Assembly: GCF_028368995.1 (NCBI RefSeq)
Contig: NZ_JAQNDL010000004.1
Span: forward strand, 512,001 to 576,000
Origin: Nannocystis bainbridge
GTDB lineage: Bacteria > Myxococcota_A > Polyangia > Nannocystales > Nannocystaceae
Direction: 5' to 3'
Length of the DNA stretch: 64,000 bases
The notes under the pieces are model-generated. The model did no database searches, had not been told where the DNA came from, and saw only the letters and a list, made by a program, of their open reading frames with translations. Position 1 is the stretch's first letter, and each line of letters opens with the position of its first letter. The translations under genes were made by a program, and so were the position numbers. Shown piece after piece: positions 737-54,953 of this stretch.

Positions 737-782
737 TGTGAACCTCGGGACATGTCGTGTCGGACATGTCCCGAAGGTCACG
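737..782. repeat. 14-bp-phased TGTCC-N4-GGACA array (about 3 units)
   Basis: Junction tetramers at 737, 751, 765 and 779, immediately after the peptidase stop. Confidence 0.75.
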
Positions 783-973
783 CACCTGAGGAGTGCGGCG
801 CGCGTGGCGCGCGCCGCTCGAGGGCGAATGTCAAAGCAAGACATCCGTCCGCGGGGCGCTGGTGGAGGCGGGTGCGCGCGGCTTTATGAATGCGGCTTAA
901 CGCCGGGTTCACCGCGAGCCGCGAGTACAGCGTTCATGCTGGCCGGGCCGCGCAGCGCGGCGCTCGGTGCTTC

Positions 974-3900
974 ATGTCGACCGCCACGGCCCATCCGCTT
1001 TCGTTCGACGCGCCGCCGCAGCCCGCGGCGCGCCCCGACGTGCGCGAGCGCCTGCAGGCGGCGCTGGAGCACGCGTCGCACTACTTGCCGGCCCAGGCGC
1101 CGCTCGAGGTGTTCGTCCACCACAACACGCTGCACGCGTTCCAGCACCTGCCGTTCCACGCGGCGATCCGCGAGGCCCAGACCAAGCTGCGGGTCCGCGG
1201 GTACCTGACCAAAGAGACATATCGTGAGTTGTTGGCGAGCGGACGGATCCGCGAGGACGACCTCGACGCGGTGCTGGCCGACGAGCGGTTCCCGGGCGAG
1301 CCGATCGCGCCCGGGTTCCCGAGCCGCGACGTCGCCGCGGCGCTGGTGATCCGCCACGGGGTCGGCGCCGAGACGATCGCCCACCTGCGCTGGAACCTGG
1401 TCGAGAAGGACGCGGCCAACCGGTTCGACGGCGACATCCGCCAGGGGCCGCGCGACGCGATCGTCCGCAGCACGCGGGCCTGGCTCGAGCAGGAGGTCGC
1501 GGCCGCCGGCGGGCCGGCGGGCGCGCGCGAGGTCGCGGCCAAGGTCGTGAGCCCGACGCCCGGCGAGCGCGCCCTCGATCCGCTGCGCAAGCTCGGCGCG
1601 CTGCTCGGCCGCCGCGTCGACCCACGCGACCTGATGGGGGCGTTCGCGTGCAACCCGGAGCTGTTCTCGGTGCGCGCGCTGTGGACCGCCTGCGTCCGCG
1701 CGTGCGAGCACCTCGAGGGCCAGCCGTGCCCGCAGGACACGCCGGCGGTGTTTCATCGCGACCTGCTGCTGCGCACCAGCGGCGAGGATCCGAACGACCT
1801 GGTCCACGCCCACCTGATCCCGCTGTGCGCGGCGTTCCTCGACCGCGGGCAGTCGTACTGGACGATGCCGGACCGCGAGCGCGGGTTCTTCCGCGCGTGG
1901 TCGAAGGTGCTGTCGTCGGGCCTCGGCGTGCGCCCGGCGTGGCTGGCGGGCCTCGGCGAGCGTCTGCGCGACTGGGACGCGCGCAAGCTCGGGGCCGAGG
2001 ACGTGGTGGTCGAGCTGCTGGCCGAGCTCGGGATCGCCGACGACGAGCTCGCGGCGTTCGTCGAGCACACGCTGCTGCAGCTGCCGGGGTGGGCGGGGAT
2101 GTTCCACCGGCTGGAGAGCGCGCCGGGGCCGATCGGTCGCACGCGCGCGCAGGTCCACTTGATCGACTACATGGCGGTGCGGCTGACGCTCGACCTGTTC
2201 GCGTACTGCGACGTCGGGGCGCGGCTCGGCCTGCGCGGCCAGGCCCGCGCGATCCGGGCGGCCTGCGCCGGGCTGCCGCAGATCTCGGGGCCGAAGCAGC
2301 GCGGCCGCCACGACACCTCGTGGCCGCTGTTCCGCCTGTGTCAGCTCGCGGGGGTGTCGGCGGCGACGATCTACGCGGCCAGCCGGGCCGACGTCGAGGC
2401 GGTGCTGGCGTTCCTCGACGAGCTCGACGAGCCGACCCGGCTGCGCGTGCTCCACGAGGCGTACGAGCGCCGCTACCGGGTCGAGCTGCTCGACGCGCTG
2501 GCGGCCAACCTGGCCGCGCCGCCGCCGGTGACGACGCGGCCGCGGCATCAGGTGGTGTTCTGCATCGACGATCGCTTCGAGTCGTCGCGCCGCCACCTCG
2601 AGGAGATCGCGCCCGAGTGCGAGACCCTCGGCGCGGCCGGGTTCTTCGGCCTGGCGATCGCGTACCAGGGCATCGACGATCCGAGCACGTTCCCGCTGTG
2701 CCCGGTGGTGGTCGAGCCGCAGCACCGGATCGAGGAGCAGGCGCTGACGCGGCAGTTCAGCATCGCCGAGCTGCGCGCGAGCCGGCGCCGCCAGCTGGGC
2801 GAGATCGAGACGGCGTGGGGCCGGATGTCGCGCTCGCTGCTGCTCGGCTCGATCGTCACCGCGGTCGCCGGGTTCTTCGCCGCGATCCCGCTGCTGGCGA
2901 GCGTGTTCTCGCCGCGCGCGGCCGGGCGGATGCGCAAGGCGATCGCGCGCTGGTGGCTGCCCGAGCCGATGACCCGGCTGACGGAGCTGCGCGCCGAGCA
3001 GGACGGGACGCGCACGGCGCAGGTGATGTCGGGCTTCACGCTCGACGAGATGGCGACCCGGGTGGCGTCGCTGCTCGAGAACATGGGGATCGTGCACCGG
3101 TTCGGGAAGCTGATCGTGGTGCTCGGCCACGACTCGTCGAGCGTCAACAACCCGTACTTCCCGGCCTACTCGTGCGGGGCGTGCGGCGGCCGCTCGGGCG
3201 GGCCCAACGCGCGGCTGTTCGCGCGCATGGCCAATCAGTCGGGGGTGCGCGAGCGACTGGCAGCGCGCGGGATCGAGGTGCCGGCCGACACGGTGTTCGT
3301 CGGCGGGCTCTACGACACCGCCAACGACATGATCCGCCTCTACGACGCCGAGGACCTGCCCGACGCGGCGCTGCTCGAGCTGCGGGTGCTGTCGCCGCAG
3401 CTCGAAGAGATGTGCCGCCGCAACGCGCACGAGCGCTGCCGCCGGTTCGCGGCGGCGCCGCGGCGGGCCTCGCCCGAGCGCGACCAGCGGCACGTCGAGG
3501 GCCGCGCGTTCGACCTGGCGCAGGCGCGCCCGGAGCTCGGCCACGCGACCAATGCGGCCTGCTTCGTCGGCCGGCGCCCGCTGACCGCGGGCCTGTTCCT
3601 CGACCGGCGGGCGTTCCTCGTCTCGTACGATCCGGAGCAAGATCCGAAGGGCGCGATCCTCGAGCGGATCTTGCTGGCCGTCGGCCCCGTCGGCGCCGGC
3701 ATCAACCTCGAGTATTTCTTCTCGACCGTCGACGCCGAGCGGCTCGGCGCCGGGACCAAGCTGCCGCACAACGTCACCGGCCTGTTCGGGGTCATGAACG
3801 GGGCCAGCAGCGACCTGCGGACCGGGCTGCCGCGGCAGATGACGGAGATCCACGAGCCGGTGCGGCTGCACCTGGTGGTCGAGGCGACGCCGGCGACGCT

Positions 3901-4126
3901 GCTGGCGATCGCGGGCCGCCAGCCGATCGTCGCCGAGCTGGTGACGAACGAGTGGCTGCGGCTGTGCGCGGTCGACCCGGACACGCGCGCGATCCAGGTG
4001 TTCGACGCCCGCTTCGGCTTCCGCCCCTACACGCCCGTCAGCGCCGGGCTGCCGCGCGTCGCTCGCTCCGGCGACTGGTACGCCGGGCGCGACGGGTTCT
4101 TGCCGCCGGCGCTGATCCGTCCCTGA
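974..4126 (+). CDS. dabA: DabA/DUF2309 (UPF0753) inorganic carbon transporter subunit, beta-CA-like
   Basis: LPAQAPLEVFVHHNTLHAF N-terminus; FCIDDR (C,D ligands); GHDSSSVNNP...CGACGG (H,C ligands); RPELGHATNA, LDRRAFLVSYD, INLEYFFSTVD, GAGTKLPHNV, HEPVRL. ATG 974 preferred over 890. Confidence 0.92.
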   Translation: MSTATAHPLSFDAPPQPAARPDVRERLQAALEHASHYLPAQAPLEVFVHHNTLHAFQHLPFHAAIREAQTKLRVRGYLTKETYRELLASGRIREDDLDAVLADERFPGEPIAPGFPSRDVAAALVIRHGVGAETIAHLRWNLVEKDAANRFDGDIRQGPRDAIVRSTRAWLEQEVAAAGGPAGAREVAAKVVSPTPGERALDPLRKLGALLGRRVDPRDLMGAFACNPELFSVRALWTACVRACEHLEGQPCPQDTPAVFHRDLLLRTSGEDPNDLVHAHLIPLCAAFLDRGQSYWTMPDRERGFFRAWSKVLSSGLGVRPAWLAGLGERLRDWDARKLGAEDVVVELLAELGIADDELAAFVEHTLLQLPGWAGMFHRLESAPGPIGRTRAQVHLIDYMAVRLTLDLFAYCDVGARLGLRGQARAIRAACAGLPQISGPKQRGRHDTSWPLFRLCQLAGVSAATIYAASRADVEAVLAFLDELDEPTRLRVLHEAYERRYRVELLDALAANLAAPPPVTTRPRHQVVFCIDDRFESSRRHLEEIAPECETLGAAGFFGLAIAYQGIDDPSTFPLCPVVVEPQHRIEEQALTRQFSIAELRASRRRQLGEIETAWGRMSRSLLLGSIVTAVAGFFAAIPLLASVFSPRAAGRMRKAIARWWLPEPMTRLTELRAEQDGTRTAQVMSGFTLDEMATRVASLLENMGIVHRFGKLIVVLGHDSSSVNNPYFPAYSCGACGGRSGGPNARLFARMANQSGVRERLAARGIEVPADTVFVGGLYDTANDMIRLYDAEDLPDAALLELRVLSPQLEEMCRRNAHERCRRFAAAPRRASPERDQRHVEGRAFDLAQARPELGHATNAACFVGRRPLTAGLFLDRRAFLVSYDPEQDPKGAILERILLAVGPVGAGINLEYFFSTVDAERLGAGTKLPHNVTGLFGVMNGASSDLRTGLPRQMTEIHEPVRLHLVVEATPATLLAIAGRQPIVAELVTNEWLRLCAVDPDTRAIQVFDARFGFRPYTPVSAGLPRVARSGDWYAGRDGFLPPALIRP

Positions 4127-4221
4127 CCTTTCGGACATGTTATTCAAGACATGCTCGAATCCACCCCGCTGCTGCCGATCCGTCCCTGACCTTTCGGACA
4201 TGGTCTTCGCGTCATGCTCGA
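4114..4221 (+). repeat. Imperfect 45-bp direct duplication of the dabA-stop/dabB-start junction (period 63)
   Basis: gatccgtccctgacctttcggacatg is exact at 4114-4139 and 4177-4202, and each copy is followed by ...catgctcga. Confidence 0.9.
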
Positions 4222-5554
4222 CCCCAACACGCTCGCACACGTGATCGCGCTGGCCCCGGCCGCGCCGGCGCTCGGCGGCCTCGTCATCGCCGTCCTGCTG
4301 GCGGCGCGGCTGGCCGGCGAGCGCGTGGTGGCGGCGGTGGCCCAGACGGCGATCGGCCTGGGCCTGTTGGGCCTGCTGGTGGGCTTGGTCGGCTGGGCGC
4401 TCGGGCCCGCGGGTCCGCTCGAGCTCGGGTTCGGCTCGTGGTACTCGGGCGCGGGCTACGACTTCCGCATCGACCTGCTGATCGACGGCCGCTCGGCGGC
4501 GGTGTCGGCCCTGGTGTCGCTGCTGCTGCTGGCGACCAGCCGGTTCTCGATCGCGTACCTGCACCGCGAGCCGGGCTTCAACCGGTTCTTCCTGCTGATG
4601 CTGCTGTTCGGCGCGGGCATGCAGACGCTGGTGCTGGCGGGCAACCTCGAGCTGCTGTTCGTCGGCTGGGAGATCGTCGGCATGACCTCGGTGCTGCTGG
4701 TCGGGTTCTTCCACGACCGCCAGGGGCCGGTGAAGGCGGCGACCCGGGTGCTGGTGACGTACCGGCTGTGTGACATCGGCCTGCTGACCGCGGGGGTGTC
4801 GCTGCATCGCTGGCTGCACACGAGCGACTGGATGGCGGCCGAGCAGGCGGCGCTGACGAGCCCGTGGCCTGCGACGTTCGTCGGCCTGTCGCTGGTGTTC
4901 GCGGCGATGGGCAAGTCGGCCCAGTTCCCGCTCGGGGGCTGGCTGCCGCGGGCGATGGAGGGGCCGACGGCCTCGTCGGCGGTGTTCTACGGCAGCCTCT
5001 CGGTGCACGCGGGGGTGTACCTGCTGCTGCGCGCGGCGCCGCTGCTCGAGCACTCGCTGGCGGCGCAGACGATGATGATCACGGTCGGCGCGATCACGGC
5101 GGTGATCTCGGCGATGAGCAGCCAGGCGAGCCCGGACGCGAAGTCGGCGGTGGCCTACGCGACGGCCAGCCAGGTCGGGCTGATGTTCGTCGAGATCGGG
5201 TTCGGGCTCTACACGATCGCGACGGTCCACCTCGTGGCCCACGCGATGCTGCGCTACTACCAGTTCCTGCGCACGCCATCGGCCTTGCAGGACGCGCTGG
5301 CCCGCCGCGCGGCGCTCGGCCGCACGGAGGCCGACGAGGGCGCGGTCCGCTGGGAGGCGCTCGGGCTGCGCACGCGCCGTTACGTGTACCGCATGGCGAT
5401 CGAGCGCTTCGACGTCGAGATCGCGCTCGACCGCTATGTGGTGCGCCCGGTGATGGCGCTGTCGCGCCGGCTCGATCGCCTCGAGTCGCAGCTGCTGGCG
5501 CTGCACGGCGAGTCGGACCGGCGCGGGCGCGGGTCGAAGGAGGATCGGCGATGA
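4214..5554 (+). CDS. dabB: DabB-like proton-conducting membrane subunit (NuoL/MrpA family)
   Basis: Highly hydrophobic; LFVGWEIVG, YRLCDIGL, GKSAQFPLGGWLPRAMEGPTASSA, SQVGLMF, HLVAHA; adjacent to dabA. Confidence 0.85.
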   Translation: MLDPNTLAHVIALAPAAPALGGLVIAVLLAARLAGERVVAAVAQTAIGLGLLGLLVGLVGWALGPAGPLELGFGSWYSGAGYDFRIDLLIDGRSAAVSALVSLLLLATSRFSIAYLHREPGFNRFFLLMLLFGAGMQTLVLAGNLELLFVGWEIVGMTSVLLVGFFHDRQGPVKAATRVLVTYRLCDIGLLTAGVSLHRWLHTSDWMAAEQAALTSPWPATFVGLSLVFAAMGKSAQFPLGGWLPRAMEGPTASSAVFYGSLSVHAGVYLLLRAAPLLEHSLAAQTMMITVGAITAVISAMSSQASPDAKSAVAYATASQVGLMFVEIGFGLYTIATVHLVAHAMLRYYQFLRTPSALQDALARRAALGRTEADEGAVRWEALGLRTRRYVYRMAIERFDVEIALDRYVVRPVMALSRRLDRLESQLLALHGESDRRGRGSKEDRR

Positions 5555-7023
5555 ACGCGTGGGTGCAGTACTCGCTGATCGTGCTGTGGCTGATGCCGCT
5601 GCTGGCCGCGGCGGCGCTGCGCTGGGGGGTGCGCGGGGCGAGCAAGCAGCGCGCGCTGGCGCTGGGGTTCGCGCTGCCGATCTTCGTGATCGCGTGCGCG
5701 CTGTTCGTCCACGAGGGCACGCGCCACGCGTACGCGGAGGATCACCTCGAGCAGGGTCTGGGCTGGTGGCACAGTCACTTCGCGATCGACGGGCTGAACG
5801 CGGTGCTGCTGCCGCTGACGGCCGGGCTGACGCTGGTGGCGCTGCTGATGACGCCGCGCGCCGACATGCGCGCGGGGCTGGCGGCCAAGATCATGGTGGT
5901 CGAGGGGGCGCTGATGGGCAGCTTCCTCGCGCTCGACGCGGGGGTGCTGTCAGGCTTCGTGGTGCTGTCGCTGCTGCCGCTGTGGTTCGACGCCAGGCAC
6001 CGCGGGTCGCGGCCGCTGCAGGTGATCCTGAAGTCGCTGGTGGTGGCGACGGGGCTGGCGCTGACGGTGGCGATGGTCGGGCTGGCGCTCGAGGCGTCGG
6101 CGGCGGGGGTGCAAAACCCGCTGGACCTGGTGGCGCTGGCCAAGAGCACGTACACGCCGTCGCCGTGGATCGGGACGCTGGTCCTGGCGGTGGCGCTGCT
6201 GCGCATGGGGATCGTGCCGCTGCACCTGTGGTTCCCGGCGACGGCGCAGCACAGCACGCCGCACCTGGCCCTCGTGACATGTTTGACGCCGCTCGGGTCG
6301 TTCATGCTGGCCCGCCTGGCGCTGGCGATCTTCCCGCGGGTGTTCGGACCGGCGGCGCCGCTGCTGATGGCGCTGGGGGTGGTCACTGCGCTGTACGGGG
6401 CGTTCCTGGCGCTGGGACAGTTCGACCTGCGCCGGATCGTGGCGTGGTTCTGGGTCAGCCAGTCCGGGCTGGTGCTGGCAGGCTTCGCAGGGCTCGACGA
6501 CGCGAGCGTGTCCGGGGCGCTGCTGCAGGCGATGTCGACGGTGGTGGAGTGCGGGGGGCTGATGCTGCTGACGCTGGCGGTGGAGGTGCGGGCGAACACG
6601 ACGGACCTGCGCAAGCTCGGGGGGCTGGCCCACAATGCGCCGCGGATGGCGACGGCGTACCTGATCCTGGCAGCCGCGGCGGTGGGGTTCCCGGGGACGA
6701 TCTCGTTCGTGGCGGAGGACCTGGTCGGGCAAGGGCTGCTGCGCGAGCACCCGTTCGTGGTGGGGCTGCTGTTCATCGTGACGGCGGTGAACGGGATCAC
6801 GCTGTGGCGGGCGTTCAAGCGCACGTTCCTGGGGCCGCCGTCGCCGCACGCGGACGATCTGCGCGGGTTCGAGGATCTGCGGCAGTGGGAGACGTATGCG
6901 ATCGCGGGGATGATCGGGACGCTGCTGCTCGGGGGGTTCCTGCCGGAGCCGCTGCTGGCGGTGCGGCGCGGGGTAGTCGATGCGATTGGGCGTATCGAGG
7001 CGCCGGTGGTCGACGGGCATTGA
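5551..7023 (+). CDS. NuoM/MrpD-like proton-conducting membrane subunit
   Basis: ATG overlaps the upstream stop (ATGA) and follows an AGGAGG RBS; IDGLN, RMGIVPLHLWFP, LGGLAHNAP, GFPGTISFVAEDL motifs; multiple TM segments. Confidence 0.85.
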   Translation: MNAWVQYSLIVLWLMPLLAAAALRWGVRGASKQRALALGFALPIFVIACALFVHEGTRHAYAEDHLEQGLGWWHSHFAIDGLNAVLLPLTAGLTLVALLMTPRADMRAGLAAKIMVVEGALMGSFLALDAGVLSGFVVLSLLPLWFDARHRGSRPLQVILKSLVVATGLALTVAMVGLALEASAAGVQNPLDLVALAKSTYTPSPWIGTLVLAVALLRMGIVPLHLWFPATAQHSTPHLALVTCLTPLGSFMLARLALAIFPRVFGPAAPLLMALGVVTALYGAFLALGQFDLRRIVAWFWVSQSGLVLAGFAGLDDASVSGALLQAMSTVVECGGLMLLTLAVEVRANTTDLRKLGGLAHNAPRMATAYLILAAAAVGFPGTISFVAEDLVGQGLLREHPFVVGLLFIVTAVNGITLWRAFKRTFLGPPSPHADDLRGFEDLRQWETYAIAGMIGTLLLGGFLPEPLLAVRRGVVDAIGRIEAPVVDGH

Positions 7024-7045
7024 GCGGGCTCGCGTTTGCGGGGGG

Positions 7046-7420: not shown

Positions 7421-7478
7421 TCGGCTCGGTTCGGCTCGGGAGCGGCCTGGTGAGGCGATGAGAGAGGGCTTGATGGAG

Positions 7479-7583
7479 GATGGCCTTCAAGACATGTCGA
7501 TGAGGACATGTCTCGGGGCGTGATGCGCTGAGGACGATGTGGCCTTCGGGGCATGTTCATGAGGACATGTCTCGGAAGACTTG
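7479..7583. repeat. 14-bp-phased TGTCC-N4-GGACA arrays at a convergent junction
   Basis: Junction tetramers at 7479/7493/7507 and 7552/7566/7580. Confidence 0.8.
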
Positions 7584-7596
7584 TTGTGACGGCGAG

Positions 7597-10931: not shown

Positions 10932-11005
10932 CATGTTTTAATGGACATGTTCCAGAGGACATGTCCTCGGCGGCATGTCGCGCGGGACATGCCGCTCAGG
11001 ACAGG
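10932..11005. repeat. 14-bp-phased array (5 units)
   Basis: CATG at 10932, 10946, 10960, 10974, 10988 and CAGG at 11002. Confidence 0.9.
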
Positions 11006-11006
11006 C

Positions 11007-15250
<4,244 letters not shown>

Positions 15251-15613
15251 GGGGACGATACGGCAGTTGCCCGCGAGCGGCACGTGATCTGCGCGAGAAA
15301 AAGCCTGTGCGCTAGTGTTTCTGCGCAACGAACGGCAAGGCCGAGGTCCCTGGACCCCGACTTCGGCGCGATTCGCCCCTGAGGGCACAAAATCGCGCAG
15401 AACGCCGTTTATTGTGCGTTTCGTCCGCTCATGGTCCGCCCGCGAGGGGTTGGATCGCCGCCTCGGGGATCGGAGCATTTCCCGTTGCAATTCGGCACTT
15501 CGCCGGCGCGTGCCCCAGCCGCGCCCGGCCCTGAGCGACGCGACGCGAACGCCTCGCCCGGCACTACGCCGGTCGAGGCTCGCGCCACCGGACTCGTACC
15601 CCGCAGGACCCCC

Positions 15614-17164
<1,551 letters not shown>

Positions 17165-17186
17165 GCGGCACGGCTGTACCTCGGGA

Positions 17187-17260
17187 CATGTCCCTGGCGG
17201 CATGTCCCGAGCGACATGGGCTCGAGGGCATGTCGCTTGGAGCATGTCCTCGAGGACAGG
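17187..17260. repeat. 14-bp-phased array (5 units) at a convergent junction
   Basis: CATG at 17187, 17201, 17215, 17229, 17243 and CAGG at 17257. Confidence 0.92.
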
Positions 17261-19216: not shown

Positions 19217-20281
19217 ATGCGCGAATGGGTGCTGTACGGCGCCAATGGTTACACCGGCGAGCTCATCGCCCGTCAGGCGGCCTCCGAGGGTCTGCGCCCG
19301 ATCCTGGCCGGCCGCGACGCGCCGGCGATCCGCCGGCTGGCCGGCGAACTCGGGCTCGAAGCGCGGGTGTTCGCCCTCGACGATCCGGAGGCCCTGCGCC
19401 GCGGGCTCGCAGGCGCCGCCCTGGTGCTGCACGCCGCCGGGCCGTTCTCGCGGACCAGCGCGCCGATGGTCGCGGCCTGCCTCGAGAGCGAAGTCCATTA
19501 CCTCGACATCACCGGTGAGATCCCCGTGTTCGAGGCCTGCAGGGCCCAGGACGCCCGCGCGCGCGAGCGCGGCGTGGTCCTGATGCCCGGCGTCGGCTTC
19601 GACGTGGTGCCCTCGGACTGCCTGGCCAAGGCGCTGGCCGAGGCCCTGCCGGAGGCGACGCGGCTCGAGCTGGCGATCCTGGCGCTCGGCGAGCTCAGCC
19701 GTGGCACCACCAAGACGATGATCGAGCACCTCGGCGCCGGCGGGGTGGTGCGCGAGGGCGGCCGCCTGGTCCCGATCGCCCCGGGCTCGCGCACCCGCAC
19801 CGTCCGCCTCGGCGGGCGCGAGCGCCTGGTGGTGGCGGTGCCGTGGGGCGATCTGGCGACCGCGTACGCGTCGACGGGGATCGAGAACATCACCACGTGG
19901 ATGAGCTTCCCGAAGGCGCAGATCCGCGGCATGCGGGCGCTCCGGCTGCTGGCGCCGCTGCTGCGCCTCCGGCCGGTGATCAAGGTGCTGCAGGCGCTGG
20001 TCGACCGCCGGGTCACCGGACCCGACGAGCAGGTCCGCGAGGCCGGCTCGAGCGAGATCTGGGGCCGCGTCGAGGCGCCCGACGGCCGGGCCGTGGAGGG
20101 CCGGGTGCGCACGCCCGAGGGCTACAAGTTCACGGTGATCGCGTCGCTGGCGAGCGTCCGTCGCATGCTCGAGGCGGCGCCGGCCGCCGGCTACCAGACG
20201 CCGGCGACGGCGTTCGGCAGCGGCTTCGTCGCCACGCTGCCGGGCTGCTCGCTGACGGTGCCCGAGACGGCTGGCGCTTAG
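19217..20281 (+). CDS. Saccharopine dehydrogenase-like NAD(P)-binding oxidoreductase
   Basis: LYGANGYTG, LAGR, HAAGPF, HYLDITGE, GVGFDVVPSD, GYQTPA. Confidence 0.9.
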   Translation: MREWVLYGANGYTGELIARQAASEGLRPILAGRDAPAIRRLAGELGLEARVFALDDPEALRRGLAGAALVLHAAGPFSRTSAPMVAACLESEVHYLDITGEIPVFEACRAQDARARERGVVLMPGVGFDVVPSDCLAKALAEALPEATRLELAILALGELSRGTTKTMIEHLGAGGVVREGGRLVPIAPGSRTRTVRLGGRERLVVAVPWGDLATAYASTGIENITTWMSFPKAQIRGMRALRLLAPLLRLRPVIKVLQALVDRRVTGPDEQVREAGSSEIWGRVEAPDGRAVEGRVRTPEGYKFTVIASLASVRRMLEAAPAAGYQTPATAFGSGFVATLPGCSLTVPETAGA

Positions 20282-20283
20282 GG

Positions 20284-20331
20284 CATGTTTGAACGGGCAT
20301 GTCCGAGCGGCCATGTCCGTTCGGGCATGTC
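20284..20331. repeat. 14-bp-phased array (3 units) at a convergent junction
   Basis: CATG at 20284, 20298, 20312 and 20326. Confidence 0.9.
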
Positions 20332-20344
20332 CGAGCGCGGTGGG

Positions 20345-31735: not shown

Positions 31736-31854
31736 GATGTCTCGAGGGGCGAGTGTGCTTCGATGTGTCCCAAGGGACATGTTGATCTCTCGTGCCTCGA
31801 TATGTCCCGAAGGACAGACGATCGCGCTTGCATCGAAGTGTCTCGAAGGACAGG
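31736..31854. repeat. Degenerate cluster of 14-bp units
   Basis: tgtcccaagggaca, tgtcccgaaggaca and tgtctcgaaggaca downstream of the 31661 stop. Confidence 0.75.
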
Positions 31855-33542: not shown

Positions 33543-33670
33543 CAGGGTCTTCGGGACATGCTTGAAAGGGCATGTCCTCGAGGACGGCGTGGTGAGCGAT
33601 CGCGCCGTGGAAACGTGAAAACAGTCTGGCCCTCAGGACATGCTCCTTCGGGCATGTCCTGAGGAGCAGG
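33543..33670. repeat. Two 14-bp-phased arrays at a convergent junction
   Basis: Tetramers at 33543/33557/33571/33585 and 33625/33639/33653/33667. Confidence 0.88.
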
Positions 33671-34689: not shown

Positions 34690-36714
34690 TCAGCCGGCGG
34701 CCGCGATCACCTCGAGCAGGCCGGCGCCGTACTTGTCGGCCTTGGCCGGGCCGATCCCGTGGGCGAGCAGCAGCTGGTCGCGGGTGCGCGGGCGCAGCAG
34801 CGCGAGGTCGCGCAGGCTGCGGTCGCTGGCGACCACGTAGGGCGGGACCCCGTCGCGGCTGGCGACCTGCATGCGGTGGGCGCGGAGGCGCTCGAACAGC
34901 GCCAGGGCGGCGGCGTCGAGCACGGCCTCGGGCTCGTGCGTCTTTCTGTCCTTCGGGACATGTCCCAAGGGACCTGCCCCGGGGAGCATGTCCTTTGCGG
35001 CAGGTCGATGGCGCGGCGGCAGCAGCAGGCGGGCCGGCACGGCGCCGCGCATGACCTGGCGGCCGATGTCGGTGAGGACGACGACGGGGCGGTCGTCGCC
35101 GGTGAAGTCGACCCAGCCGGCGACGACGCAGCGGCGCAGCAGGCGGAGCAGCCAGGGGCCGTCGTGATCGCGCAGGGCGCCGAAGGTCGGGGTGTTGACG
35201 AGGCCAGTGCGCTCGAGCCGCTCGTCGGCGGCGCCGCGCAGCAGGCTGACGGCCGCCTGTAGGCCGAAGCGGCGGTGGATCCGGGCGACCGCGCTGAGCG
35301 CCTTGCGCACGATCAGGGTCGTGGCCTCCGGGTCGTCGTCGGCCTCGGCCGAGAGCTGGCGGCACACGTCGCAGCGGGCGCAGCCGCCGAGCGCCTCGCC
35401 CTCGTCGCCGAAGTGGCGGAGGATCGCGTCGTGGCGGCACGAGCCGCCCTCGGCCCAGCGCATCAGCTCGAGGAAGGTGTTCCACTTGTGCTCGACCACC
35501 GCCGGCGCGGGCGGGCTGTCGTCGCCGCCGCCGCGCTCGATCAGCCGGCGCCGCAGCGGCAGGTCGCCCGGGGCGATCAGCAGCAGACCGAGCGCGTCGC
35601 GGCCGTCGCGGCCGGCGCGACCGACCTCCTGGTAGTAGGCCTCGATCGAGCCCGGCGGGGCCAGGTGGATCACCGCCCGCACGTCGCCGCGGTCGATGCC
35701 CATGCCGAAGGCGTTGGTGGCGACGACGATGTCGAGCTCGCCGCGCGAGAAGCGGGCCTGGACCCGATCGCGCTGCGGACCCTCGAGGCCGGCGTGGTAG
35801 GCCTCGGCCCGCCAGCCGCGGGTGACCAGGCGCACCGACTCCTGCTCGGTGACCTTGCGGGTGGGGGCGTAGATGATGGCTGTCCCGTAGGACATGTCCT
35901 CGGCGTCATGTCCCGAAGGACGGGCGCCGGGGGCCCGGCCGAGCGCCGCCTCGAGCGTGTGGTCGATGAGGCGCTCGCGCGACCGGCGGTCCTCCTCCTC
36001 GGCGACGTGCAGGGCCAGGTTGGGGCGGGCGAAGCCGCGGACGATCTGCGGGGTGTCGGCCGGCAGGCCCAGGCGCGACAGGATCTCGTCGCGCACCACC
36101 GGGGTGGCGGTGGCGGTGCAGGCGAGCACGCGCGCGCGCGGCAGGTCGGCCAGGAGCTCGCCGATCTGCAGGTACTCCGGGCGAAAGTCGTGGCCCCACT
36201 CGCTGATGCAGTGGGCCTCGTCGATGGCGATCAGCGGGACGGCGATCCGGCGGCAGATGTCGCGGAAGGCCGGGGCGCCGAGCCGCTCGGGGGCGACGTA
36301 GACGAGCTTGTAGTGGCCACGCGCCATGGCCCCGAGGCGGGCGCTGATCTCGGGCCCGGGCAAGGTGCTGGCGAGGAAGGTGGCCGTGACGCCGCGCGCC
36401 TCGAGGGCCCGCACCTGGTCGGCCATGAGGGCGATCAGCGGCGAGAGGACGATGGTGGTGCCCGGCAAGGCGCTGCCCGGGAGCTGGAAGGTGAGGCTCT
36501 TGCCGCCGCCGGTGGGCGCGACGAGCAGCAGCCGCCGCCGCTGCATGAGGACCTCGATGGCCTCGGCTTGACCTGGCCGAAAGGACTGGTAGCCGAGCCG
36601 CTGCAGGGCGCCCAGGAAATCGGGCCCGTCGCCCGCGCCAGGCTCCTGACGGGGGCCTCCGGGGCCGGCAGGCCGAACCGTCGCGTCGGGCTCGTGGGCG
36701 CCAGGAGAGGTCAC
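34690..36714 (-). CDS. recQ: RecQ-family ATP-dependent DNA helicase (RQC + HRDC)
   Basis: [49 protein letters not shown]...C..CD.C Zn motif, [15 protein letters not shown]. Confidence 0.93.
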
Positions 36715-36764: not shown

Positions 36765-36842
36765 GGCGCGAGCGCGGCGGGGGCCTGGCGCGAGCGCGGC
36801 GGGGACCTGGCGCGAGCGCGGCGGGAGCCTGGCGCGAGCGCG
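36765..36842. repeat. 22-bp tandem repeat (about 3.5 copies)
   Basis: ggcgcgagcgcggcgggRRcct starting at 36765, 36787, 36809 and 36831. Confidence 0.85.
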
Positions 36843-45359: not shown

Positions 45360-45528
45360 GGATGTCTGAAGGGACATGGCCGCGAGGTCATGTCCCTTTT
45401 GCGTGCATGGTTCACCGAGCCCGAGTCGGATGTCTGAAGGGACATGGCCGCGAGGTCATGTCCCTTCGTGCATGTGCTTCGCATTGGATGTCCGAAGAGA
45501 CATGGCCGCGAGGTCATGTCCCTTCGTG
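45360..45528. repeat. Three ~39-bp direct repeats, each built of two 14-bp units, at a convergent junction
   Basis: ggatgtcYgaagRgacatggccgcgaggtcatgtccctt at 45360, 45428 and 45486. Confidence 0.92.
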
Positions 45529-45541
45529 CGCCCGGCTCGGG

Positions 45542-47113
45542 TCAGAGCGCCTGCGCGGCGATCCAGCGGAACACGCCGGGCCCGGTGCCGCGCATCAGCT
45601 CGGGGTCGGGCTCGAGCGCGTCGATGCGCGCCAGCTCGCCGGTCACCGAGAGCACGTACAGGTTGCGCGGGGCCGACGGCGGCAGCAGCAGCTCGACGCT
45701 GAAGCCCTGGTCGTCGCGGCTGTGGAGCAGCAGGTCGCCGTCGTCGTCGATCGCCAGCGCCCACATCGGCACGCCCTGGAACCGCTCCATGCCCGCCGAC
45801 GACACGCGGACGATCTCCCCCGCCGTCACCCCGCCGACGTCCTGCGTGTCGCTGGCGCACGTCCAGGCGACGAAGCGGGCGTTCGGCGAGGCCACCGGCG
45901 GCTGGCCGCCGACGCATGGGCTCTGCTCCGCGCTCAGCAGCTCGAGCCGGTCGGCGTCGACGCGCAGCGCGGCCCCGCGGACCGTCACGAACAGCAGCGC
46001 GCGGCCGTCGGCGCTGACGCGGGTGAACAGCTCGCCGGTGTCGCCGATCAGCGGCCGGCCGTCGTGCTCGCCGGTCGTGTGGTCGTAGCGGCGGATCGCC
46101 AGGCCGTCACGGAACACGTAGTGGCGGGGCGAGACGGCGGCGACCAGGCGCGAAGGGTCGGCCCACGCGGGGGCGTCGCCCGGGACCGCGCAGGCGACCC
46201 CGGGCTCGTCGACGGCCCAGCGCCACACGCGGCAGAGGCCGTCGGCGCCGCCCAGGCTCAGCGCGCCGCCGTCGGGGTCGACCACGCCGAGGCCGCAGCT
46301 CGGGCCCGGGCCGGCGCAGCGGGCCCGCTGCAGCCGCGCGAGCGGGGCGTCGGGCAGGCGGGCCGCGCCCAGCTCGGTCAACGCGGGCGCGGCGTCGTAG
46401 CCCTCGGCTGGCCTCGGGTACCTGATTGCAAGGACATGTCCTTTGGGACCTGGCCGTAAGAACCCGTCCTCGGGGACACCTTGCACGGCGAACAGCACCG
46501 GGGCGTCGGCGGCGCCCACGACCCCCCAGACCTCGGCGCAGCCGGCCGGCAGCGGCCACGCGAGCGGCACGATCGCGGCCGGATCGCCGGCGCTGGTGGT
46601 GGCGACCCGGGGCGACAGCGGCACCAGCTGCAGCGCGGCCGGGCAGCCGGCGGTCCACCACAGCGCGCCGCCGGCGGGGGCGAAGCCGGTGGCGTCAGGG
46701 GCCAGGCGGGCGGGCAGGGCGAGCGGCAGGGTGCGCGCGCCGACGAGGTCGACGAAGCCGGCGCGCAGCGTGCCGAAGCTGTCCCCGAGTTCATGTTGCC
46801 AGCCGCCGTCGCCGGCGCGGATAAGGGCGCCCTGACCGCGCGGATCGAGCTCGACCACGAGGGGCTGCGCGTCGGCCTCGGGGCCCGGTTCGGCGGGCAA
46901 GAGCTCGCGGAAGGCGAGGTCGCCGGCGTCGTAGATCGTCAGGGTCCGGGCCCCCTCCTTGCCGCGCTGCGACGCGATCCACACCGCGCGCGCGTCGACC
47001 GTGGGCGGGCCGCACGCGACGAGGCCAACGACGGTCAGGACGGTCAGGATCGCCGCGCCCGCGCGAGCGCGAAGGCCCGCGGGCGGGCGCGGGGGCGTCG
47101 CTTGTGACTTCAC
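45542..47113 (-). CDS. Hypothetical lipoprotein, possibly a beta-propeller
   Basis: GTG after a GGGGGA RBS; LTVVGLVAC lipobox; LDPRG, VSADGR and ASPNARFVAW blade-like segments. Confidence 0.65.
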   Translation of the reverse strand: MKSQATPPRPPAGLRARAGAAILTVLTVVGLVACGPPTVDARAVWIASQRGKEGARTLTIYDAGDLAFRELLPAEPGPEADAQPLVVELDPRGQGALIRAGDGGWQHELGDSFGTLRAGFVDLVGARTLPLALPARLAPDATGFAPAGGALWWTAGCPAALQLVPLSPRVATTSAGDPAAIVPLAWPLPAGCAEVWGVVGAADAPVLFAVQGVPEDGFLRPGPKGHVLAIRYPRPAEGYDAAPALTELGAARLPDAPLARLQRARCAGPGPSCGLGVVDPDGGALSLGGADGLCRVWRWAVDEPGVACAVPGDAPAWADPSRLVAAVSPRHYVFRDGLAIRRYDHTTGEHDGRPLIGDTGELFTRVSADGRALLFVTVRGAALRVDADRLELLSAEQSPCVGGQPPVASPNARFVAWTCASDTQDVGGVTAGEIVRVSSAGMERFQGVPMWALAIDDDGDLLLHSRDDQGFSVELLLPPSAPRNLYVLSVTGELARIDALEPDPELMRGTGPGVFRWIAAQAL

Positions 47114-47197
47114 TCCCCCGCCTGGTGTCGCCGCGGCCACCACCCCCAGGGTACCAGCCTTGCGCGCCCGATGCGGGTTTGGCAGGCTTCGCGCCTC

Positions 47198-49213: not shown

Positions 49214-49456
49214 GCCGCCCCCGACGGCTCCGACCTGGAGCCGAGACACGACGCGCATGCCGGCGAGCCGGGGTGCGCGTCGTCGGTCTTCGTGGGCACG
49301 AGCGAGAGCGAGTGAACATCGTTCGCCACGGATGTCGTGAGCGAGCGGCCGACGCCTGGCGATGGTGCTGCGCCGCGAACTCGTTCAGCCTGTCACGACG
49401 GCGTGGGGCGCTCTCCGAGGGGCTTCTCCGCGATCGTCCCACCGGGAGTCAACGTG

Positions 49457-51292: not shown

Positions 51293-51307
51293 GGCTGTTT
51301 TCTCGCG

Positions 51308-51383
51308 CCTGACCTCGAGGGCATGTCCGTAAGGGCATGCTCTCGAGGCGCTGTTCGTAAGGACATGTCCTCGGCGACATGTC
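51308..51383. repeat. 14-bp-phased array (5 units) at a convergent junction
   Basis: Tetramers at 51308, 51322, 51336, 51350, 51364 and 51378. Confidence 0.9.
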
Positions 51384-51396
51384 CGTGCGGTCAGCC

Positions 51397-51816: not shown

Positions 51817-51856
51817 GCCCCACCGTAGCCGATCGTTCGGCGCGCGCAACGCCGAG

Positions 51857-53332: not shown

Positions 53333-53362
53333 CGGCCGCAGTGTAGCGTGGGGCGACGCGGG

Positions 53363-54265
53363 TCACGGCGCTCTCGCGCTGCGCACGTCGAGGGCGACGA
53401 GCCGCTCGCGCAGGCGCGAGGCCGCGGGCGGCAAGCTGGCGCCGCGCCGCCACATCAGGCGGTACGTCACGTGGCCGAGCTCGGGCACCGGGCGCGCGAC
53501 GGCGCCGCGAGGCAGGCTGCAGCTGCCGTTGACGATGGCGACGCCGAGGCCGAGGCCGGCGAGGTGCAGCATCAGCGGCCAGCCGTCGGCCTCGATCGGC
53601 GGCGCGCCGACGTCTGCCAGGCCGGCCAGCGCGCGGCCGACGAACGCGCGGTGCGACTGGCCCGCGGGGGCGAGGATCAGCCGCTCCCCCGCGAGGTCGG
53701 CCAGGCGCACGCGACGACGCCGGGCCAGGCGGTGACTGGCGGCCATCGCCACGCACAGCGGGGTGCGCAGGAGATCGCGGGCGACCAACTCCTCGGGCAC
53801 GAGGTCGACGACACCCACTGCCAGGTGAGCCGCGCCCTCACGCACGGCCTCGGCGGCGTCGGGCCCGCCGCGGGTGATCGGGCACAGCGTGGCGTCGGGC
53901 TCGTCGCGCGCGAAGGCCCGCAGGCTCGGGCCGAGCAGGTAGAGGTACGCGCCCTCGCCGGCGGCCAGGACGACGCGCTCGCGCCGGGCCTCGCCGCGCA
54001 GCTCGGCGAGGAAGCTCCGGGTACGCGCCAGCTCCTCGCGGGCGAACGCGGCCACCCGCACGCCGGCGTCGGTGAGCCGCAACTGACGGCCCTCGCGCTC
54101 GTACAGCGCCGCGCCGACCTCCTGCGCGAGGCGGGCGATCCGCTCGAACAGGGCCGGCTGCGACAGGCCGACCACCTTGGCCGCGCGGGTGAGGTTGAGG
54201 GCGTCGGCGAAGGCCACGAACGCGCGCAGCAGCTCACCGTCGAGTATCGGCACGACCGATGACAT
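53363..54265 (-). CDS. LysR-family transcriptional regulator
   Basis: NLTRAAKVVGLSQPAL...LYEREGRQLRLTDAG; GLGVAI. Confidence 0.9.
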   Translation of the reverse strand: MSSVVPILDGELLRAFVAFADALNLTRAAKVVGLSQPALFERIARLAQEVGAALYEREGRQLRLTDAGVRVAAFAREELARTRSFLAELRGEARRERVVLAAGEGAYLYLLGPSLRAFARDEPDATLCPITRGGPDAAEAVREGAAHLAVGVVDLVPEELVARDLLRTPLCVAMAASHRLARRRRVRLADLAGERLILAPAGQSHRAFVGRALAGLADVGAPPIEADGWPLMLHLAGLGLGVAIVNGSCSLPRGAVARPVPELGHVTYRLMWRRGASLPPAASRLRERLVALDVRSARAP

Positions 54266-54315
54266 ATCGAAGCATTCTAGACGACGCCGATAGCTCGCGG
54301 GGCCACCCTTCCAGC

Positions 54316-54867
54316 ATGCACGACGCCACCGCCGCTCCTCGCAGCTCGGCCGCCTGGTGGGCCGAGACCAAGGCCGACCCCGCGCGCCTGCTCGCCTGGC
54401 TGTTCGCGCAGTACCGCGGCGAGGTCACCGCCGCGCAGCGGATCGCCCGTCTGCGCGACGCCCACGCGACCCCGGGCAGCCGGGCTTACCGGCTGCTGAC
54501 GGCGATCGCCGGGCAGGAGCGCGACCACGCCGAGTGGGTCGGGGCGCTGCTGCAGGCCCGCGGCCACGCGCCCGCGGTGGTCGGCCCGGCCGAGGCGCGC
54601 TACTGGCGAGCGACGCTGCCCGGCATCGACGACCTCGAGACCGGCTGCGCCGTGGGGGCCCACGCCGAGGCGATGCGGCTGGCGCGGATCGAGGCGATCG
54701 CGGGCGATACGACGGCGCCGGCCGACATCCGCGCGGTGTTCGCCCGCATCCTGCCGCAGGAGCGCTTCCACGAGCGGGCGTTTCGCTCGCTGGCGACGCC
54801 GGCGAGCCTGGCCGCGACGCGCGGGGCCCACGAGCTCGGCCGCGCGGTGCTCGGGCTCGAGGCGTGA
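54316..54867 (+). CDS. Ferritin-like di-iron four-helix-bundle protein
   Basis: GE...QERDH and AE...QERFH paired E...ExxH motifs; divergent from LysR. Confidence 0.8.
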   Translation: MHDATAAPRSSAAWWAETKADPARLLAWLFAQYRGEVTAAQRIARLRDAHATPGSRAYRLLTAIAGQERDHAEWVGALLQARGHAPAVVGPAEARYWRATLPGIDDLETGCAVGAHAEAMRLARIEAIAGDTTAPADIRAVFARILPQERFHERAFRSLATPASLAATRGAHELGRAVLGLEA

Positions 54868-54879
54868 GGCGGCAGATCG

Positions 54880-54953
54880 GCTGTCTGCGAGAGCATGTCT
54901 CCGAGGGCATGTCTCGAAGAGCATGTCGTGAAGGACATGGCCTCGAGGTCTTG
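54880..54953. repeat. 14-bp-phased array (5 units) at a convergent junction
   Basis: Tetramers at 54880, 54894, 54908, 54922, 54936 and 54950. Confidence 0.92.

Follow-up and report, generated by a model that had tools for sequence, protein, structure and literature searches.

The repeats considered here raise the question of what an array of short palindromes, kept in exact 14 bp phase, is doing between converging genes. In the 64,000 nt stretch of the Nannocystis bainbridge genome that was analysed (the window), the CATG starts of one array given in the initial annotation (17187, 17201, 17215, 17229 and 17243) are read directly in the sequence, as are those of a second array placed at 10932–11002 (10932, 10946, 10960, 10974 and 10988). 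Tandem Repeats Finder reports period-14 arrays at 10957–11003, 17185–17218, 20281–20337, 51318–51370 and 54882–54939. With one mismatch at most, there are 59 matches to TGTCCNNNNGGACA (TGTCC-N4-GGACA) in the window; 100 shuffles gave 1.68 on average and never more than 5. Across the 11 Mb genome the exact dyad occurs 1,987 times with the N4 gap and 0–16 times with gaps of 0–3 and 5–10, which places the repeat family beyond chance, as had been proposed. Its array form is the 10 bp palindromic word GGACATGTCC with a period of 14 bp; this word has 956 genome copies, compared to 9–94 for five control 10-mer palindromes. The distance peak at 14 bp that the initial annotation suggested looking for is found genome-wide, there being 3,736 CATG–CATG spacings of 14 bp, 72 of 13 bp and 262 of 15 bp. 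Half-words on their own show no enrichment (1,037, where words of equal composition have a median of 660) and the unit is therefore the dyad itself, with the consensus (C)ATGTCC-N4-GGACAT(G). Further genome-wide peaks in the distances between units, at 36, 72 and 108, reflect a higher-order repeat, and composite higher-order repeats are also present. About 2.9% of this Nannocystis genome is taken up by units and arrays together with short flanks. The arrays consist of copies of one dyad, highly iterated and specific to the clade; no published description of it was found in a literature search, and the family is apparently undescribed.

Arrays had been said to mark almost every convergent gene junction. 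A convergent bias is present genome-wide, but this wording is too strong, as the element is found at 816 of 1,500 convergent junctions (54%), 1,099 of 5,177 tandem junctions (21%) and 278 of 1,498 divergent junctions (19%), where the classes come from crude in-house gene calls made with a caller that has known errors and produced visible mis-calls. Enrichment by junction class, which the initial annotation had also proposed to examine, is seen in the densities of 5.2 per kb at convergent, 1.9 at tandem and 0.62 at divergent junctions, with 0.28 in coding sequence. Arrays of at least 4 units number 375, 192, 12 and 28 in these same locations, so the scarcity in divergent regions holds beyond the window. 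Approximately 65% of gene 3' ends facing a convergent gap of 60–250 bp have the element. Most units are 10–80 nt downstream of stop codons, the median distance from stop codon to array start being 20 nt (n = 1,313 ends), and at tandem junctions 71% of 1,808 matches are closer to the upstream stop than to the downstream start. These tandem 3' end units, and the approximately 1,500 of 5,382 clusters (about 28%) that are in-frame and intragenic, were missed in the initial annotation. Convergent arrays of 2 to 7 slots number 260, 99, 140, 151, 87 and 20, with a peak at 4–5, and stacks of 4–6 words are the typical form there, whereas at tandem junctions the number of arrays falls steadily with size. 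Of 102 tRNA genes, 9 have the motif in the 150 nt downstream and 3 have it upstream. U-tracts are found at 21 of 1,390 array flanks, compared to 1.8% of 5,000 background 16-mers, in agreement with the earlier view that the convergent arrays have no U-tract terminators. The elements of the window are listed in Table 1.

Table 1. Dyad elements in the window, with their gene context and the features of individual copies.
Positions	Strand	Element	Context	Remarks
745..780	none	Short array, 2–3 words	Just past the stop of the gene ending at 736	Units 753–766 and 767–780; orthologous junction has units in 4 of 4 other species
4124..4200	none	Two single hairpin units (TGACC-TTTC-GGACA)	Unit 1 overlaps the dabA stop codon	Unit 2 within a 63 bp duplication unique to this genome; unit kept in 3 of 4 other species; loop 1 base shorter in genome G007
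7481..7575	none	Two composite units	Convergent junction 7023/7597	
10932..11003	none	Array, five CATG-phased words	Adjoins the stop of a sulfatase-like gene (11007–13430, minus strand)	Minus-strand RNA fold −38.4 kcal/mol, z = −5.7
17175..17260	none	Array, five to six words	Convergent junction 17164/17304	RNA fold −63.5 kcal/mol for the plus strand (z = −7.3), −49.6 for the minus strand
20281..20337	none	Array, four words	Convergent junction 20281/20345; begins inside the stop codon	Other species have 3–5 units in equal phase from the stop codon
31755..31853	none	Three single units, 36 bp period (higher-order repeat)		
33559..33660	none	Two short arrays	Convergent junction 33518/33676	
34947..34993	minus	In-frame intragenic array, encodes 17 residues	recQ	Protein stretch falls in the RQC-HRDC interdomain linker
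35881..35922	minus	In-frame intragenic array, three words	recQ	In an interdomain linker; within an 11-codon insertion absent from three sister genera
45363..45530	none	Three copies of a ~66 bp composite repeat	Convergent junction 45345/45542	Each copy is one unit plus an 18 bp-spaced CATG palindrome
51308..51393	none	Array, six words	Convergent junction 51292/51397	RNA fold −59 kcal/mol (plus strand), −47.5 (minus strand)
54880..54950	none	Array, five words	Convergent junction 54867/54986	
57879..58042	none	Three spaced single units	Downstream of a minus-strand rotamase-like gene (58071–58925)	Wrongly classed as divergent by the gene caller
58305..58332	minus	In-frame intragenic unit pair	Within gene 58071–58925	Kept without indels in 4 of 4 other species

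At anchored orthologous junctions in four other species the element is kept in 31 of 32 cases, with differences in spacers and unit numbers. The words of orthologous arrays are retained and the spacers have diverged beyond alignment, as expected from the original description of a conserved phase and core words with free spacers. The number of units varies among species in unit multiples, and neighbouring spacers have a slight excess of direct identity. The exact phase had been ascribed to selection for cooperative binding rather than slippage, a preference that these two observations contradict, since slippage can generate exact phase without cooperative binding. A survey of related genomes, likewise suggested beforehand, gives a graded distribution. 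The motif is abundant in Nannocystis (114–2,090 exact units per genome), weaker in two sister genera (67–696 and 87–169) and down to background in the rest of the family, most other genera having no more than 11 exact units.

Sites within coding sequences are divided between the three frames as 457, 278 and 64. For the 25 coding sites of the window (324 site-by-species comparisons in total), the arms have 17 differences at third codon positions where 91.5 are expected, taking equal codons elsewhere as the reference, and the deficit is present in each of four species. At third positions the arms diverge by 6.1%, compared to 23.7% for loops and 15.3% for the rest of the coding sequence, and the conservation of intragenic arms is about 5-fold better than that of matched codons. 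These comparisons indicate that the in-frame copies are under constraint at the nucleotide level, which is left unexplained if the element is only a terminator or roadblock. A gap is present within 6 residues of 22 of 58 intragenic sites, compared to 13% of background windows, and amino acid identity at the sites is 0.44 against 0.61. Among ungapped sites, 31 of 36 have at least 3 arm mismatches in the sister genus, therefore most of these came about through several substitutions in the lineage.

When ten array strands from the window were folded, seven were equalled by none of 200 shuffles (z from −4.0 to −7.3); for the remaining three, z is from −1.8 to −2.6. For 137 tandem arrays, folding of the RNA gives −29.9 kcal/mol in the sense and −27.1 in the antisense direction (p = 0.005). 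Sense-strand variants that are compatible with G·U pairing outnumber their mirror images in tandem-junction arrays (1,343 units; p = 2e-7 at the position before CATG), with spacer positions symmetric (p ~0.6). Likewise, one-mismatch units of the G·U-compatible type exceed mirror types at convergent (342 vs 210, p = 2e-8) and tandem (328 vs 278, p = 0.046) junctions, and in coding sequence the bias is reversed (303 vs 384). Although modest, the sense-strand bias in stems persists after control for replication strand, with odds calculated from the counts of approximately 1.4 for tandem and 2.0 for convergent junctions. Free loops have no skew on the sense strand (3,569 G, 3,659 C) and no strand preference for UUCG (163 vs 143 for its complement) or GNRA (196 vs 190); their composition is dyad-symmetric, Y-N-N-R. 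Compensatory covariation is absent from the stems, mutual information being 0.008–0.013 bits across the loop and no more than 0.023 bits within the unit, and permutation of the spacers of 438 arrays does not weaken folding (−30.4 vs −30.1 kcal/mol, p = 0.47). The conserved feature is sequence identity rather than pairing.

The explanation preferred here, although held tentatively, is that the arrays are REP/BIME-like, orientation-free stacks of 3' end hairpins, made from a HIP1-like conserved palindrome and growing by 14 bp slippage. Every word reads identically on both strands, and neighbouring words in a transcript could pair in stems of up to 10 bp that close around the free 4 nt spacer. 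As self-complementary words would pair whichever strand is transcribed, an array would form a stack of stable 3' hairpins in either orientation. Such stacks may set where transcripts end, protect these 3' ends and restrict read-through from one converging gene into the other, through a block to 3' exonucleases or through pause or insulator action, in a role like that of REP/BIME elements in E. coli. Without a U-tract, arrays would be expected to take part in 3' end definition or protection rather than to be canonical intrinsic terminators. Growth and shrinkage would occur by replication slippage between words spaced 14 bp apart, which by itself could keep the phase exact. A sequence-specific reader or drive, HIP1-like in behaviour, is inferred in addition, because sequence and not pairing is conserved and intragenic copies are held at synonymous sites. 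In favour of the hairpin stacks are the enrichment of the family, the position shortly after stop codons, the peak in convergent array size, the folding of array strands, the sense-strand G·U bias, the constraint across species and the signs of slippage. Against them, the stems do not covary, spacer permutation leaves folding intact, the loops lack a strand preference, U-tracts are absent, and the G·U bias is modest and reversed in coding sequence. In addition, the N4 gap (1,987 vs no more than 16) is stricter than hairpin stability needs, and the synonymous-site constraint within genes is not explained by a 3' end role. Of the functions first offered (roadblock, topoisomerase or nucleoid site, RNA 3' end element), the sequence evidence slightly favours one at the RNA level at 3' ends, with a DNA-binding dimer as a close rival.

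In that rival, which is possible rather than probable, the dyad is a site in double-stranded DNA where TGTCC-N4-GGACA would be read by a clade-specific dimeric protein. This could be a nucleoid-associated protein or a roadblock or terminator factor, or the dyad could be a loading site for gyrase or another topoisomerase; convergent-end arrays would be sites of high occupancy and single intragenic copies sites of low occupancy. A 5-N4-5 dyad of strictly fixed spacing suits such a reader, FNR-type sites having this same layout and the BIME-2 elements of E. coli binding gyrase. Conservation of sequence rather than pairing, the symmetry of loop composition on both strands, the contrast within genes between constrained arms and free or fast loops, the unenriched half-words and the scarcity at divergent junctions are all consistent with it, and a gradient across taxa is in keeping with a reader that arose inside the clade. 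The candidate protein itself was not found, there being no PadR-domain ORF in the genome and no regulator or nuclease indicated by upstream regions and unit-flanked genes. A centre-to-centre spacing of 14 bp would be cramped for side-by-side helix-turn-helix dimers and would turn successive sites by approximately 120 degrees. Neither is the G·U bias of the sense strand predicted by a DNA site, and relief of supercoils does not require placement directly after stops rather than at the centre of the junction.

Molecular drive without cis function, through biased repair or through a DUS/USS-like preference in DNA uptake that would involve a dyad-reading receptor, is unlikely. The motif would accumulate and persist by the biased process, piling up where least harmful, after stops, at convergent junctions and in protein linkers. 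Clade-specific, graded abundance would be expected from this, as would coding copies in permissive frames, intragenic sites in indel-prone stretches and the origin of most ungapped sites by substitution. In Neisseria, inverted pairs of DUS form terminator-like hairpins. Conservation of sites between species, as reported for HIP1 (PMC5861425), is also in keeping with drive. The half-words alone are unenriched, unlike asymmetric uptake words, the size of convergent arrays peaks at 4–5 slots with no geometric fall, and drive alone does not predict the sense-strand stem bias. A classical mobile REP or MITE family, with units copied by a RAYT or other transposase and decaying neutrally after insertion, is very improbable, in spite of the high copy number, palindromic unit, 3' intergenic bias and composite repeats, and of some intragenic copies that are insertions relative to sister genera (the 11 codons in recQ, and the 22 of 58 sites near gaps). 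A search of the genome found no Y1/RAYT domain, for which 6 of 14 control genomes gave matches, in line with the initial annotation having set the repeat apart from described REP elements. Unit flanks have neither a GTAG nor a CGTC tag, and the genes that have units on either side belong to ordinary paralogue families rather than encoding nucleases or transposases. Retention of words in orthologous arrays and the conservation of intragenic arms are unlike neutral decay, and most ungapped intragenic sites come from substitution, not insertion.

Among known systems, REP/BIME elements are reported to bind gyrase and to make the upstream mRNA more stable. The Nannocystis element resembles these as a short GC-rich palindrome that has hundreds to thousands of copies, occurs in head-to-tail clusters, is found mostly in transcribed 3' intergenic regions and where genes converge, and forms hairpins in RNA. 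It differs in its unit of only 14–18 bp, a perfect dyad and hence without orientation, in its strict 14 bp phase, in that no RAYT gene was found and the GTAG or CGTC tag is absent, and in its in-frame intragenic share of clusters, conserved at synonymous sites, which contradicts the description 'extragenic'. General background on REP/BIME in enterobacteria and pseudomonads, including REPIN-RAYT, is available in PMC3184786. HIP1 (GCGATCGC) of the cyanobacteria is likewise a clade-wide, hyper-abundant short palindrome found within and between ORFs. HIP1 is tied to two orphan methyltransferases (PMC4390886). From the conservation of HIP1 sites between genomes, selection rather than neutral replenishment has been inferred (PMC5861425). 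Nannocystis sites are also conserved, with the N4 gap enriched more than 100-fold over other gaps. HIP1 is a contiguous octamer, whereas the Nannocystis motif is a gapped dyad of other sequence, as was recognised initially, present in phased tandem arrays and strongly polarised to gene 3' ends, convergent above all. DNA uptake sequences (Neisseria DUS, Pasteurellaceae USS) are lineage-specific words whose inverted pairs form hairpins after genes. They are matched here by a lineage-specific word at roughly one per 2–5 kb, with coding copies in permissive frames and a dialect-like gradient of abundance across related genera, but the Nannocystis unit is itself a dyad, with unenriched half-words and phased arrays. 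Rickettsia palindromic elements (RPE), of approximately 100–150 bp and with no 14 bp arrays, are in-frame in protein-coding genes, typically in surface or linker regions. In-frame palindromes are similarly tolerated in Nannocystis, both recQ arrays being in linkers and one of them an 11-codon insertion; unlike RPE, the unit forms 14 bp arrays and most ungapped intragenic sites have arisen by substitution.

The dyad family TGTCC-N4-GGACA is real, abundant and constrained. The initial annotation had described arrays with an exact 14-bp phase, and this is borne out in the sequence by CATG starts at 17187, 17201, 17215, 17229 and 17243 and, in a second array, at 10932, 10946, 10960, 10974 and 10988. 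Tandem Repeats Finder gives a period of 14 at the places of the other arrays that had been named. Searching the window for TGTCCNNNNGGACA with at most one mismatch returned 59 matches, where 100 dinucleotide-preserving shuffles averaged 1.68 and never exceeded 5. The genome assembly (11.05 Mb in 5 contigs, 71-72% G+C) has 1,987 exact units, and 6,245 when one mismatch is allowed; all other gaps from 0 to 10 have 0-16 exact and 101-330 near-exact copies. The abutting form, GGACATGTCC, is present 956 times, compared with 4-19 times for other spacings and 9-94 times for five control palindromes. The autocorrelation expected of such arrays is found throughout the genome, with distances between units peaking at 14, 28, 42, 56, 70 and 84 bp. 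There are 3,736 CATG pairs at a spacing of 14 bp, compared with 72 and 262 at spacings of 13 and 15 bp, and chaining of phased CATGs generates 2,074 arrays of at least two words. Together, units, arrays and short flanks make up 2.9% of the genome.

The extended single unit is R-C-A-TGTCC-N4-GGACA-T-G-Y, and it is because neighbouring units have a CATG in common that the period is 14 bp. Letters are most strongly constrained in G.CATG.C and least at the third (T/A) and fifth (C/G) arm positions. Outside units and arrays there are 1,037 copies of the half-word GGACATG, compared with a median of 660 for 242 words of the same composition. Isolated half-words are thus barely enriched and the dyad should be seen as the unit; an asymmetric self-enriched word, as in DUS/USS, is absent. 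The spacers are nearly free of information, and pairing between them is not seen. There is no cross-loop covariation of the stems (mutual information 0.008-0.013 bits), and the arms of each unit do not co-vary, mirrored positions pairing no more than expected: Watson-Crick pairing at -4/+7 and -5/+8 is 0.285 and 0.262, with 0.276 and 0.262 expected. Permuting spacers within 438 arrays left folding essentially the same (-30.4 versus -30.1 kcal/mol, p = 0.47). In the absence of stem covariation and spacer complementarity, the long nested hairpins of the window arrays are attributable to the words themselves. The loop letters are dyad-symmetric, Y-N-N-R, with TTCG/CGAA the most frequent pair and neither strand favoured, and no sense-strand preference for RNA tetraloops was seen.

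Genes were called with a codon log-odds model, giving 8,180 genes and 82-85% coding sequence. The caller mis-called 58080-59861 and missed a minus-strand gene at 45542, therefore the counts by junction class that follow are approximate. Units are densest in convergent junctions (5.2 per kb), followed by tandem (1.9) and divergent (0.62) junctions and coding sequence (0.28). Arrays of at least four units number 375, 192, 12 and 28, respectively. An element is present in 816 of 1,500 convergent, 1,099 of 5,177 tandem and 278 of 1,498 divergent junctions, so that the convergent enrichment claimed from the window extends to the genome, although the claim that almost every convergent junction is marked does not. 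Among gene 3' ends bordering a convergent gap of 60-250 bp, approximately 65% have the element, and most convergent junctions with room for arrays carry them. The size distribution of arrays has a peak at 4-5 unit slots in convergent junctions, with a drop beyond 6, and declines steadily in tandem junctions. The median distance from the stop codon to the array start is 20 nt, and for 71% of the matches in tandem junctions the upstream stop is nearer than the downstream start. Motif matches lie downstream of 9 of the 102 tRNA genes and upstream of 3. Genes with 3' arrays have a median codon-quality score of 0.537, against 0.467 for those without, a difference confounded by spurious gene calls in the latter class.

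The arrays have the GC-rich hairpin of intrinsic terminators and lack the directly following U-tract. As the initial annotation had noted, U-tracts are lacking here: they occur in 21 of 1,390 array 3' flanks (1.5%), compared with 1.8% of 5,000 background intergenic 16-mers. The first 20 kb of the window contain 5 canonical terminator-like sites, with 2.8 expected. Fold energies of 10 array strands from the window range from -22 to -63.5 kcal/mol; for seven of these none of 200 shuffles folds as well (z -4.0 to -7.3), and the other three have z of -1.8 to -2.6. In units of arrays at tandem junctions, the sense strand has more G·U-compatible variants than mirror images of them (p = 2e-7 at the position before CATG), and the spacer positions are symmetric between the strands. 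One-mismatch units are G·U-compatible rather than mirror in 342 versus 210 cases at convergent and 328 versus 278 at tandem junctions. The effect of the replication strand is stronger, at about 2:1 towards the G-rich strand, yet calculation from the counts leaves an independent sense-strand effect, with odds of about 1.4 for tandem and 2.0 for convergent junctions. Transcription-linked mutation bias is unlikely to be its cause, since the free loops have no sense-strand skew. For 137 tandem arrays the sense RNA folds more stably than the antisense, by 2.8 kcal/mol (p = 0.005). Contigs from four metagenomic runs came from relatives and break at divergent junctions, leaving 3' ends uncovered; a search for a pure-culture RNA run found none.

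Genome-wide, the free 4-nt loops have a replication-strand skew far above the bulk GC skew of 0.05-0.10. Counts on the G-rich strand are 173 for GAAG and 43 for CTTC, and 42 for TTGG and 7 for CCAA; near-neutral loop sites may expose the underlying mutation bias. GC skew flips from +0.09 to -0.09 inside contig C3 of this genome, at about 1.45 Mb, a sign change that marks an origin or terminus of replication. Throughout, genes show little preference for a strand, each strand carrying about 50% of them.

The dyad is not confined to intergenic DNA. Called genes fully contain 799 of the 1,987 exact units, which are evenly spread along gene length and use the three frames 457, 278 and 64 times. A count that does not rely on the gene calls finds 1,504 of 5,382 clusters flanked on both sides by coding signal that agrees in strand and frame, and only 139 with flanks on the same strand in different frames. 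Both recQ arrays of the window are in interdomain linkers. Intragenic sites were compared with a 400-kb sample of a sister-genus genome (G013), in which a gap falls within six residues at 22 of 58 sites, compared with 13% of background windows. Amino-acid identity is 0.44 at the sites and 0.61 gene-wide, and 31 of 36 ungapped sites have at least three arm mismatches. These gaps and mismatches show that most intragenic sites arose by substitution in this lineage and a minority by insertion. The repeated peptides encoded by two neighbouring units on contig C3 (see table) are not found in the sister genus, which suggests that arrays can expand in frame within genes in 42-nt steps.

Between species, the syntenic region was taken from four other Nannocystis (G001, G005, G007 and G010), with 80-94% identity to the window by HSP. 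The element is kept in 31 of 32 anchored orthologous junctions, often with its start at the identical base after the stop codon, while spacers are unalignable and unit number is variable. Among 28 sites checked, 25 of them coding, those covered by the alignment are indel-free with few exceptions. Divergence at third codon positions amounts to 6.1% for arms and 23.7% for loops, compared with 15.3% for the rest of the coding sequence. The arm third positions have 17 differences where 91.5 are expected from the same codons elsewhere; the deficit is seen in each of the four species, whose relatedness makes its p-value too optimistic. Rare codons such as ACA, GGA and CAT are retained in the arms. 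This conservation excludes neutral decay of a selfish insert, therefore selection or continuing drive holds the words.

Looking wider, as the initial annotation had proposed, the double unit is carried by 9 of the 10 further genomes examined from the genus and by none of 30 genomes of other genera. Across all species representatives there are 49 double-unit loci, 32 titled Nannocystis, 14 from Mesorhizobium and 3 from unrelated MAGs. Exact units number 114-2,090 per genome in 11 Nannocystis including the one studied, 67-696 and 87-169 in sister genera g4 and g2, 5-20 in genus g32 and at most 11 in all other genera of the Nannocystaceae, with 0-10 for a reversed-pattern control. Both units and 14-bp CATG pairs are rarer in the G013 sample than in the studied genome, about 7-fold and about 45-fold respectively. 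The dyad is therefore older than the genus, and the arrays are a Nannocystis expansion. Four other genera of the family, sampled over 21.6-100 kb, have no analogous motif in the sampled sequence. The one Mesorhizobium locus examined as a lead to a reader (L007) is a perfect palindrome and not the operator of a regulator, and it offered no such lead; the 13 further Mesorhizobium loci match the double unit as well.

In being clustered and enriched at 3' ends and between convergent genes the dyad resembles REP/BIME. It departs from their extragenic-only location through the recQ array and the clusters with in-frame coding flanks, and the GTAG or CGTC tag beside the REP hairpin is absent from the flanks, where the consensus is R-C-A before TGTCC and T-G-Y after GGACA. 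HIP1 is GCGATCGC, a cyanobacterial element reported to have cognate orphan methyltransferases (PMC4390886). The dyad is like it in reaching the 15- to 300-fold over-representation of such short palindromes and in keeping its sites within and between ORFs, as seen in the window's syntenic region in five species; it differs in its distinct, gapped sequence and its myxobacterial host. The comparison with the Rickettsia RPE is mixed: recQ has an in-frame insertion and 22 of 58 intragenic sites lie near gaps, but 31 of 36 ungapped sites arose by substitution, and the dyad unit is far shorter. By analogy, the family seems most like REP/BIME at gene 3' ends and like HIP1 inside genes, and it fails the defining tests of both. 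Literature searches, with supplementary files outside their scope, found no published description of the motif, of Nannocystis repeats or of myxobacterial REPs, and for the word itself returned p53 only; as far as they reach, the family is undescribed. In the window only two tRNAs and the TPP riboswitch reach the Rfam threshold, and the arrays are covered by no Rfam family.

Judged from sequence, the single best mechanism would be that arrays are orientation-free stacks of 3' hairpins that grow by 14-bp slippage, an account we favour tentatively and at somewhat less than even confidence. A purely structural role is opposed by the covariation-free stems, the strict N4, the dyad-symmetric loops and the constrained intragenic copies. 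All four are compatible with a reader that recognises the sequence, in the simplest case a dimer bound to DNA. Such a DNA-bound dimer is possible, if on the unlikely side: the sense-strand G·U excess in the stems counts for an RNA role instead, and no candidate emerged. The PadR operator, which we take to be ATGT-N8-ACAT, fits ATGTCC-N4-GGACAT, and there is no PF03551 match in the genome. Genes with units in divergent upstream regions, where an autoregulated reader might be sought, have no pattern, and the top entry is a gene-caller error. The 260 genes flanked by units on both sides include, in their largest families, products resembling secreted Cys-rich proteins, Ser/Thr kinases, histidine kinases and PAS/STAS-type proteins, an assignment made by visual inspection of six sequences alone.

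No nuclease- or transposase-like product was seen among the flanked-gene families examined, and RAYT (Y1 transposase, PF01797) has no match in the genome (90.5% complete, 5 contigs); the same search is positive in 6 of 14 control genomes. A classical mobile element is accordingly very improbable, the more so as arm conservation speaks against a decaying selfish insert. Drive without function, which could hold the words as selection would, is unlikely. Beyond the hairpin stack, it is conceivable, though doubtful as a whole, that the dyad is a genome-wide 'punctuation' signal that arose with a dedicated putative reader in one small clade of the Nannocystaceae. On this view a dimer with sequence specificity would read the word in DNA or in the folded transcript, and stacks of 4-6 words would serve, free of orientation, as transcript-end or insulator elements replacing U-tract terminators; more than 1,000 single intragenic sites would be kept under purifying selection by the same reader. 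If so, this would be a new cis-element and reader system and more than another selfish repeat. To our knowledge, how transcripts end in high-GC bacterial genomes is a long-standing open question, for which U-tract-free junctions with one shared, easily mutated sequence offer several hundred natural test cases. Although the intragenic copies use rare codons, their third positions have changed about five times less than those of the same codons elsewhere, which makes them a clear example of a palindrome selected at the nucleotide level; the case is comparable to the unsolved HIP1 problem, here with a strong positional clue to function. Nannocystis is a producer of natural products, and native transcript-end or insulator elements and slippage expansion of arrays would be relevant to strain engineering, genome assembly and annotation.

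Features with coordinates in the window, or in the contig or record named
Feature	Location	Strand	Description
dabA and Proton_antipo_M genes	974-7023		dabA (probable inorganic carbon transporter subunit, PF10070), then two Proton_antipo_M genes
Duplication	4127-4213		63-bp duplication of dabA end and hairpin unit in the studied genome
thiC	13427-15121	-	
TPP riboswitch	15159-15251	-	Rfam RF00059, 61.6 bits; directly upstream of thiC
DUF4215 gene	15614-17164		Cys-rich protein
Coding tandem repeats	15916-16351		96 and 192 bp, in DUF4215 gene
Higher-order repeat	31755-31853		36-bp period
recQ array	35881-35922		inside 11-codon insertion absent from three sister genera
22-bp tandem repeat	36765-36842		GGCGCGAGCGCGGCGGGGGCCT, 3.5 copies, 94% matches, just upstream of recQ
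Composite higher-order repeat	45363-45530		~66 bp
Two intragenic units	C3:1609386-1609441		42 nt apart (three units, 14 codons); encode repeated ETGPSGHV peptides
Palindrome, Mesorhizobium	L007 290-337		48 bp, perfect, containing two abutting TGTCC-N4-GGACA units

The 22-bp repeat upstream of recQ is unrelated to the dyad family. The end of dabA is single-copy in four compared species, with 54 or 53 bp between anchors, and dabA with the Proton_antipo_M genes looks like a DAB-type CO2-uptake operon. TCGA pairs 24 bp apart are in excess in the window and the syntenic regions, for which the repeats of the DUF4215 gene may account.
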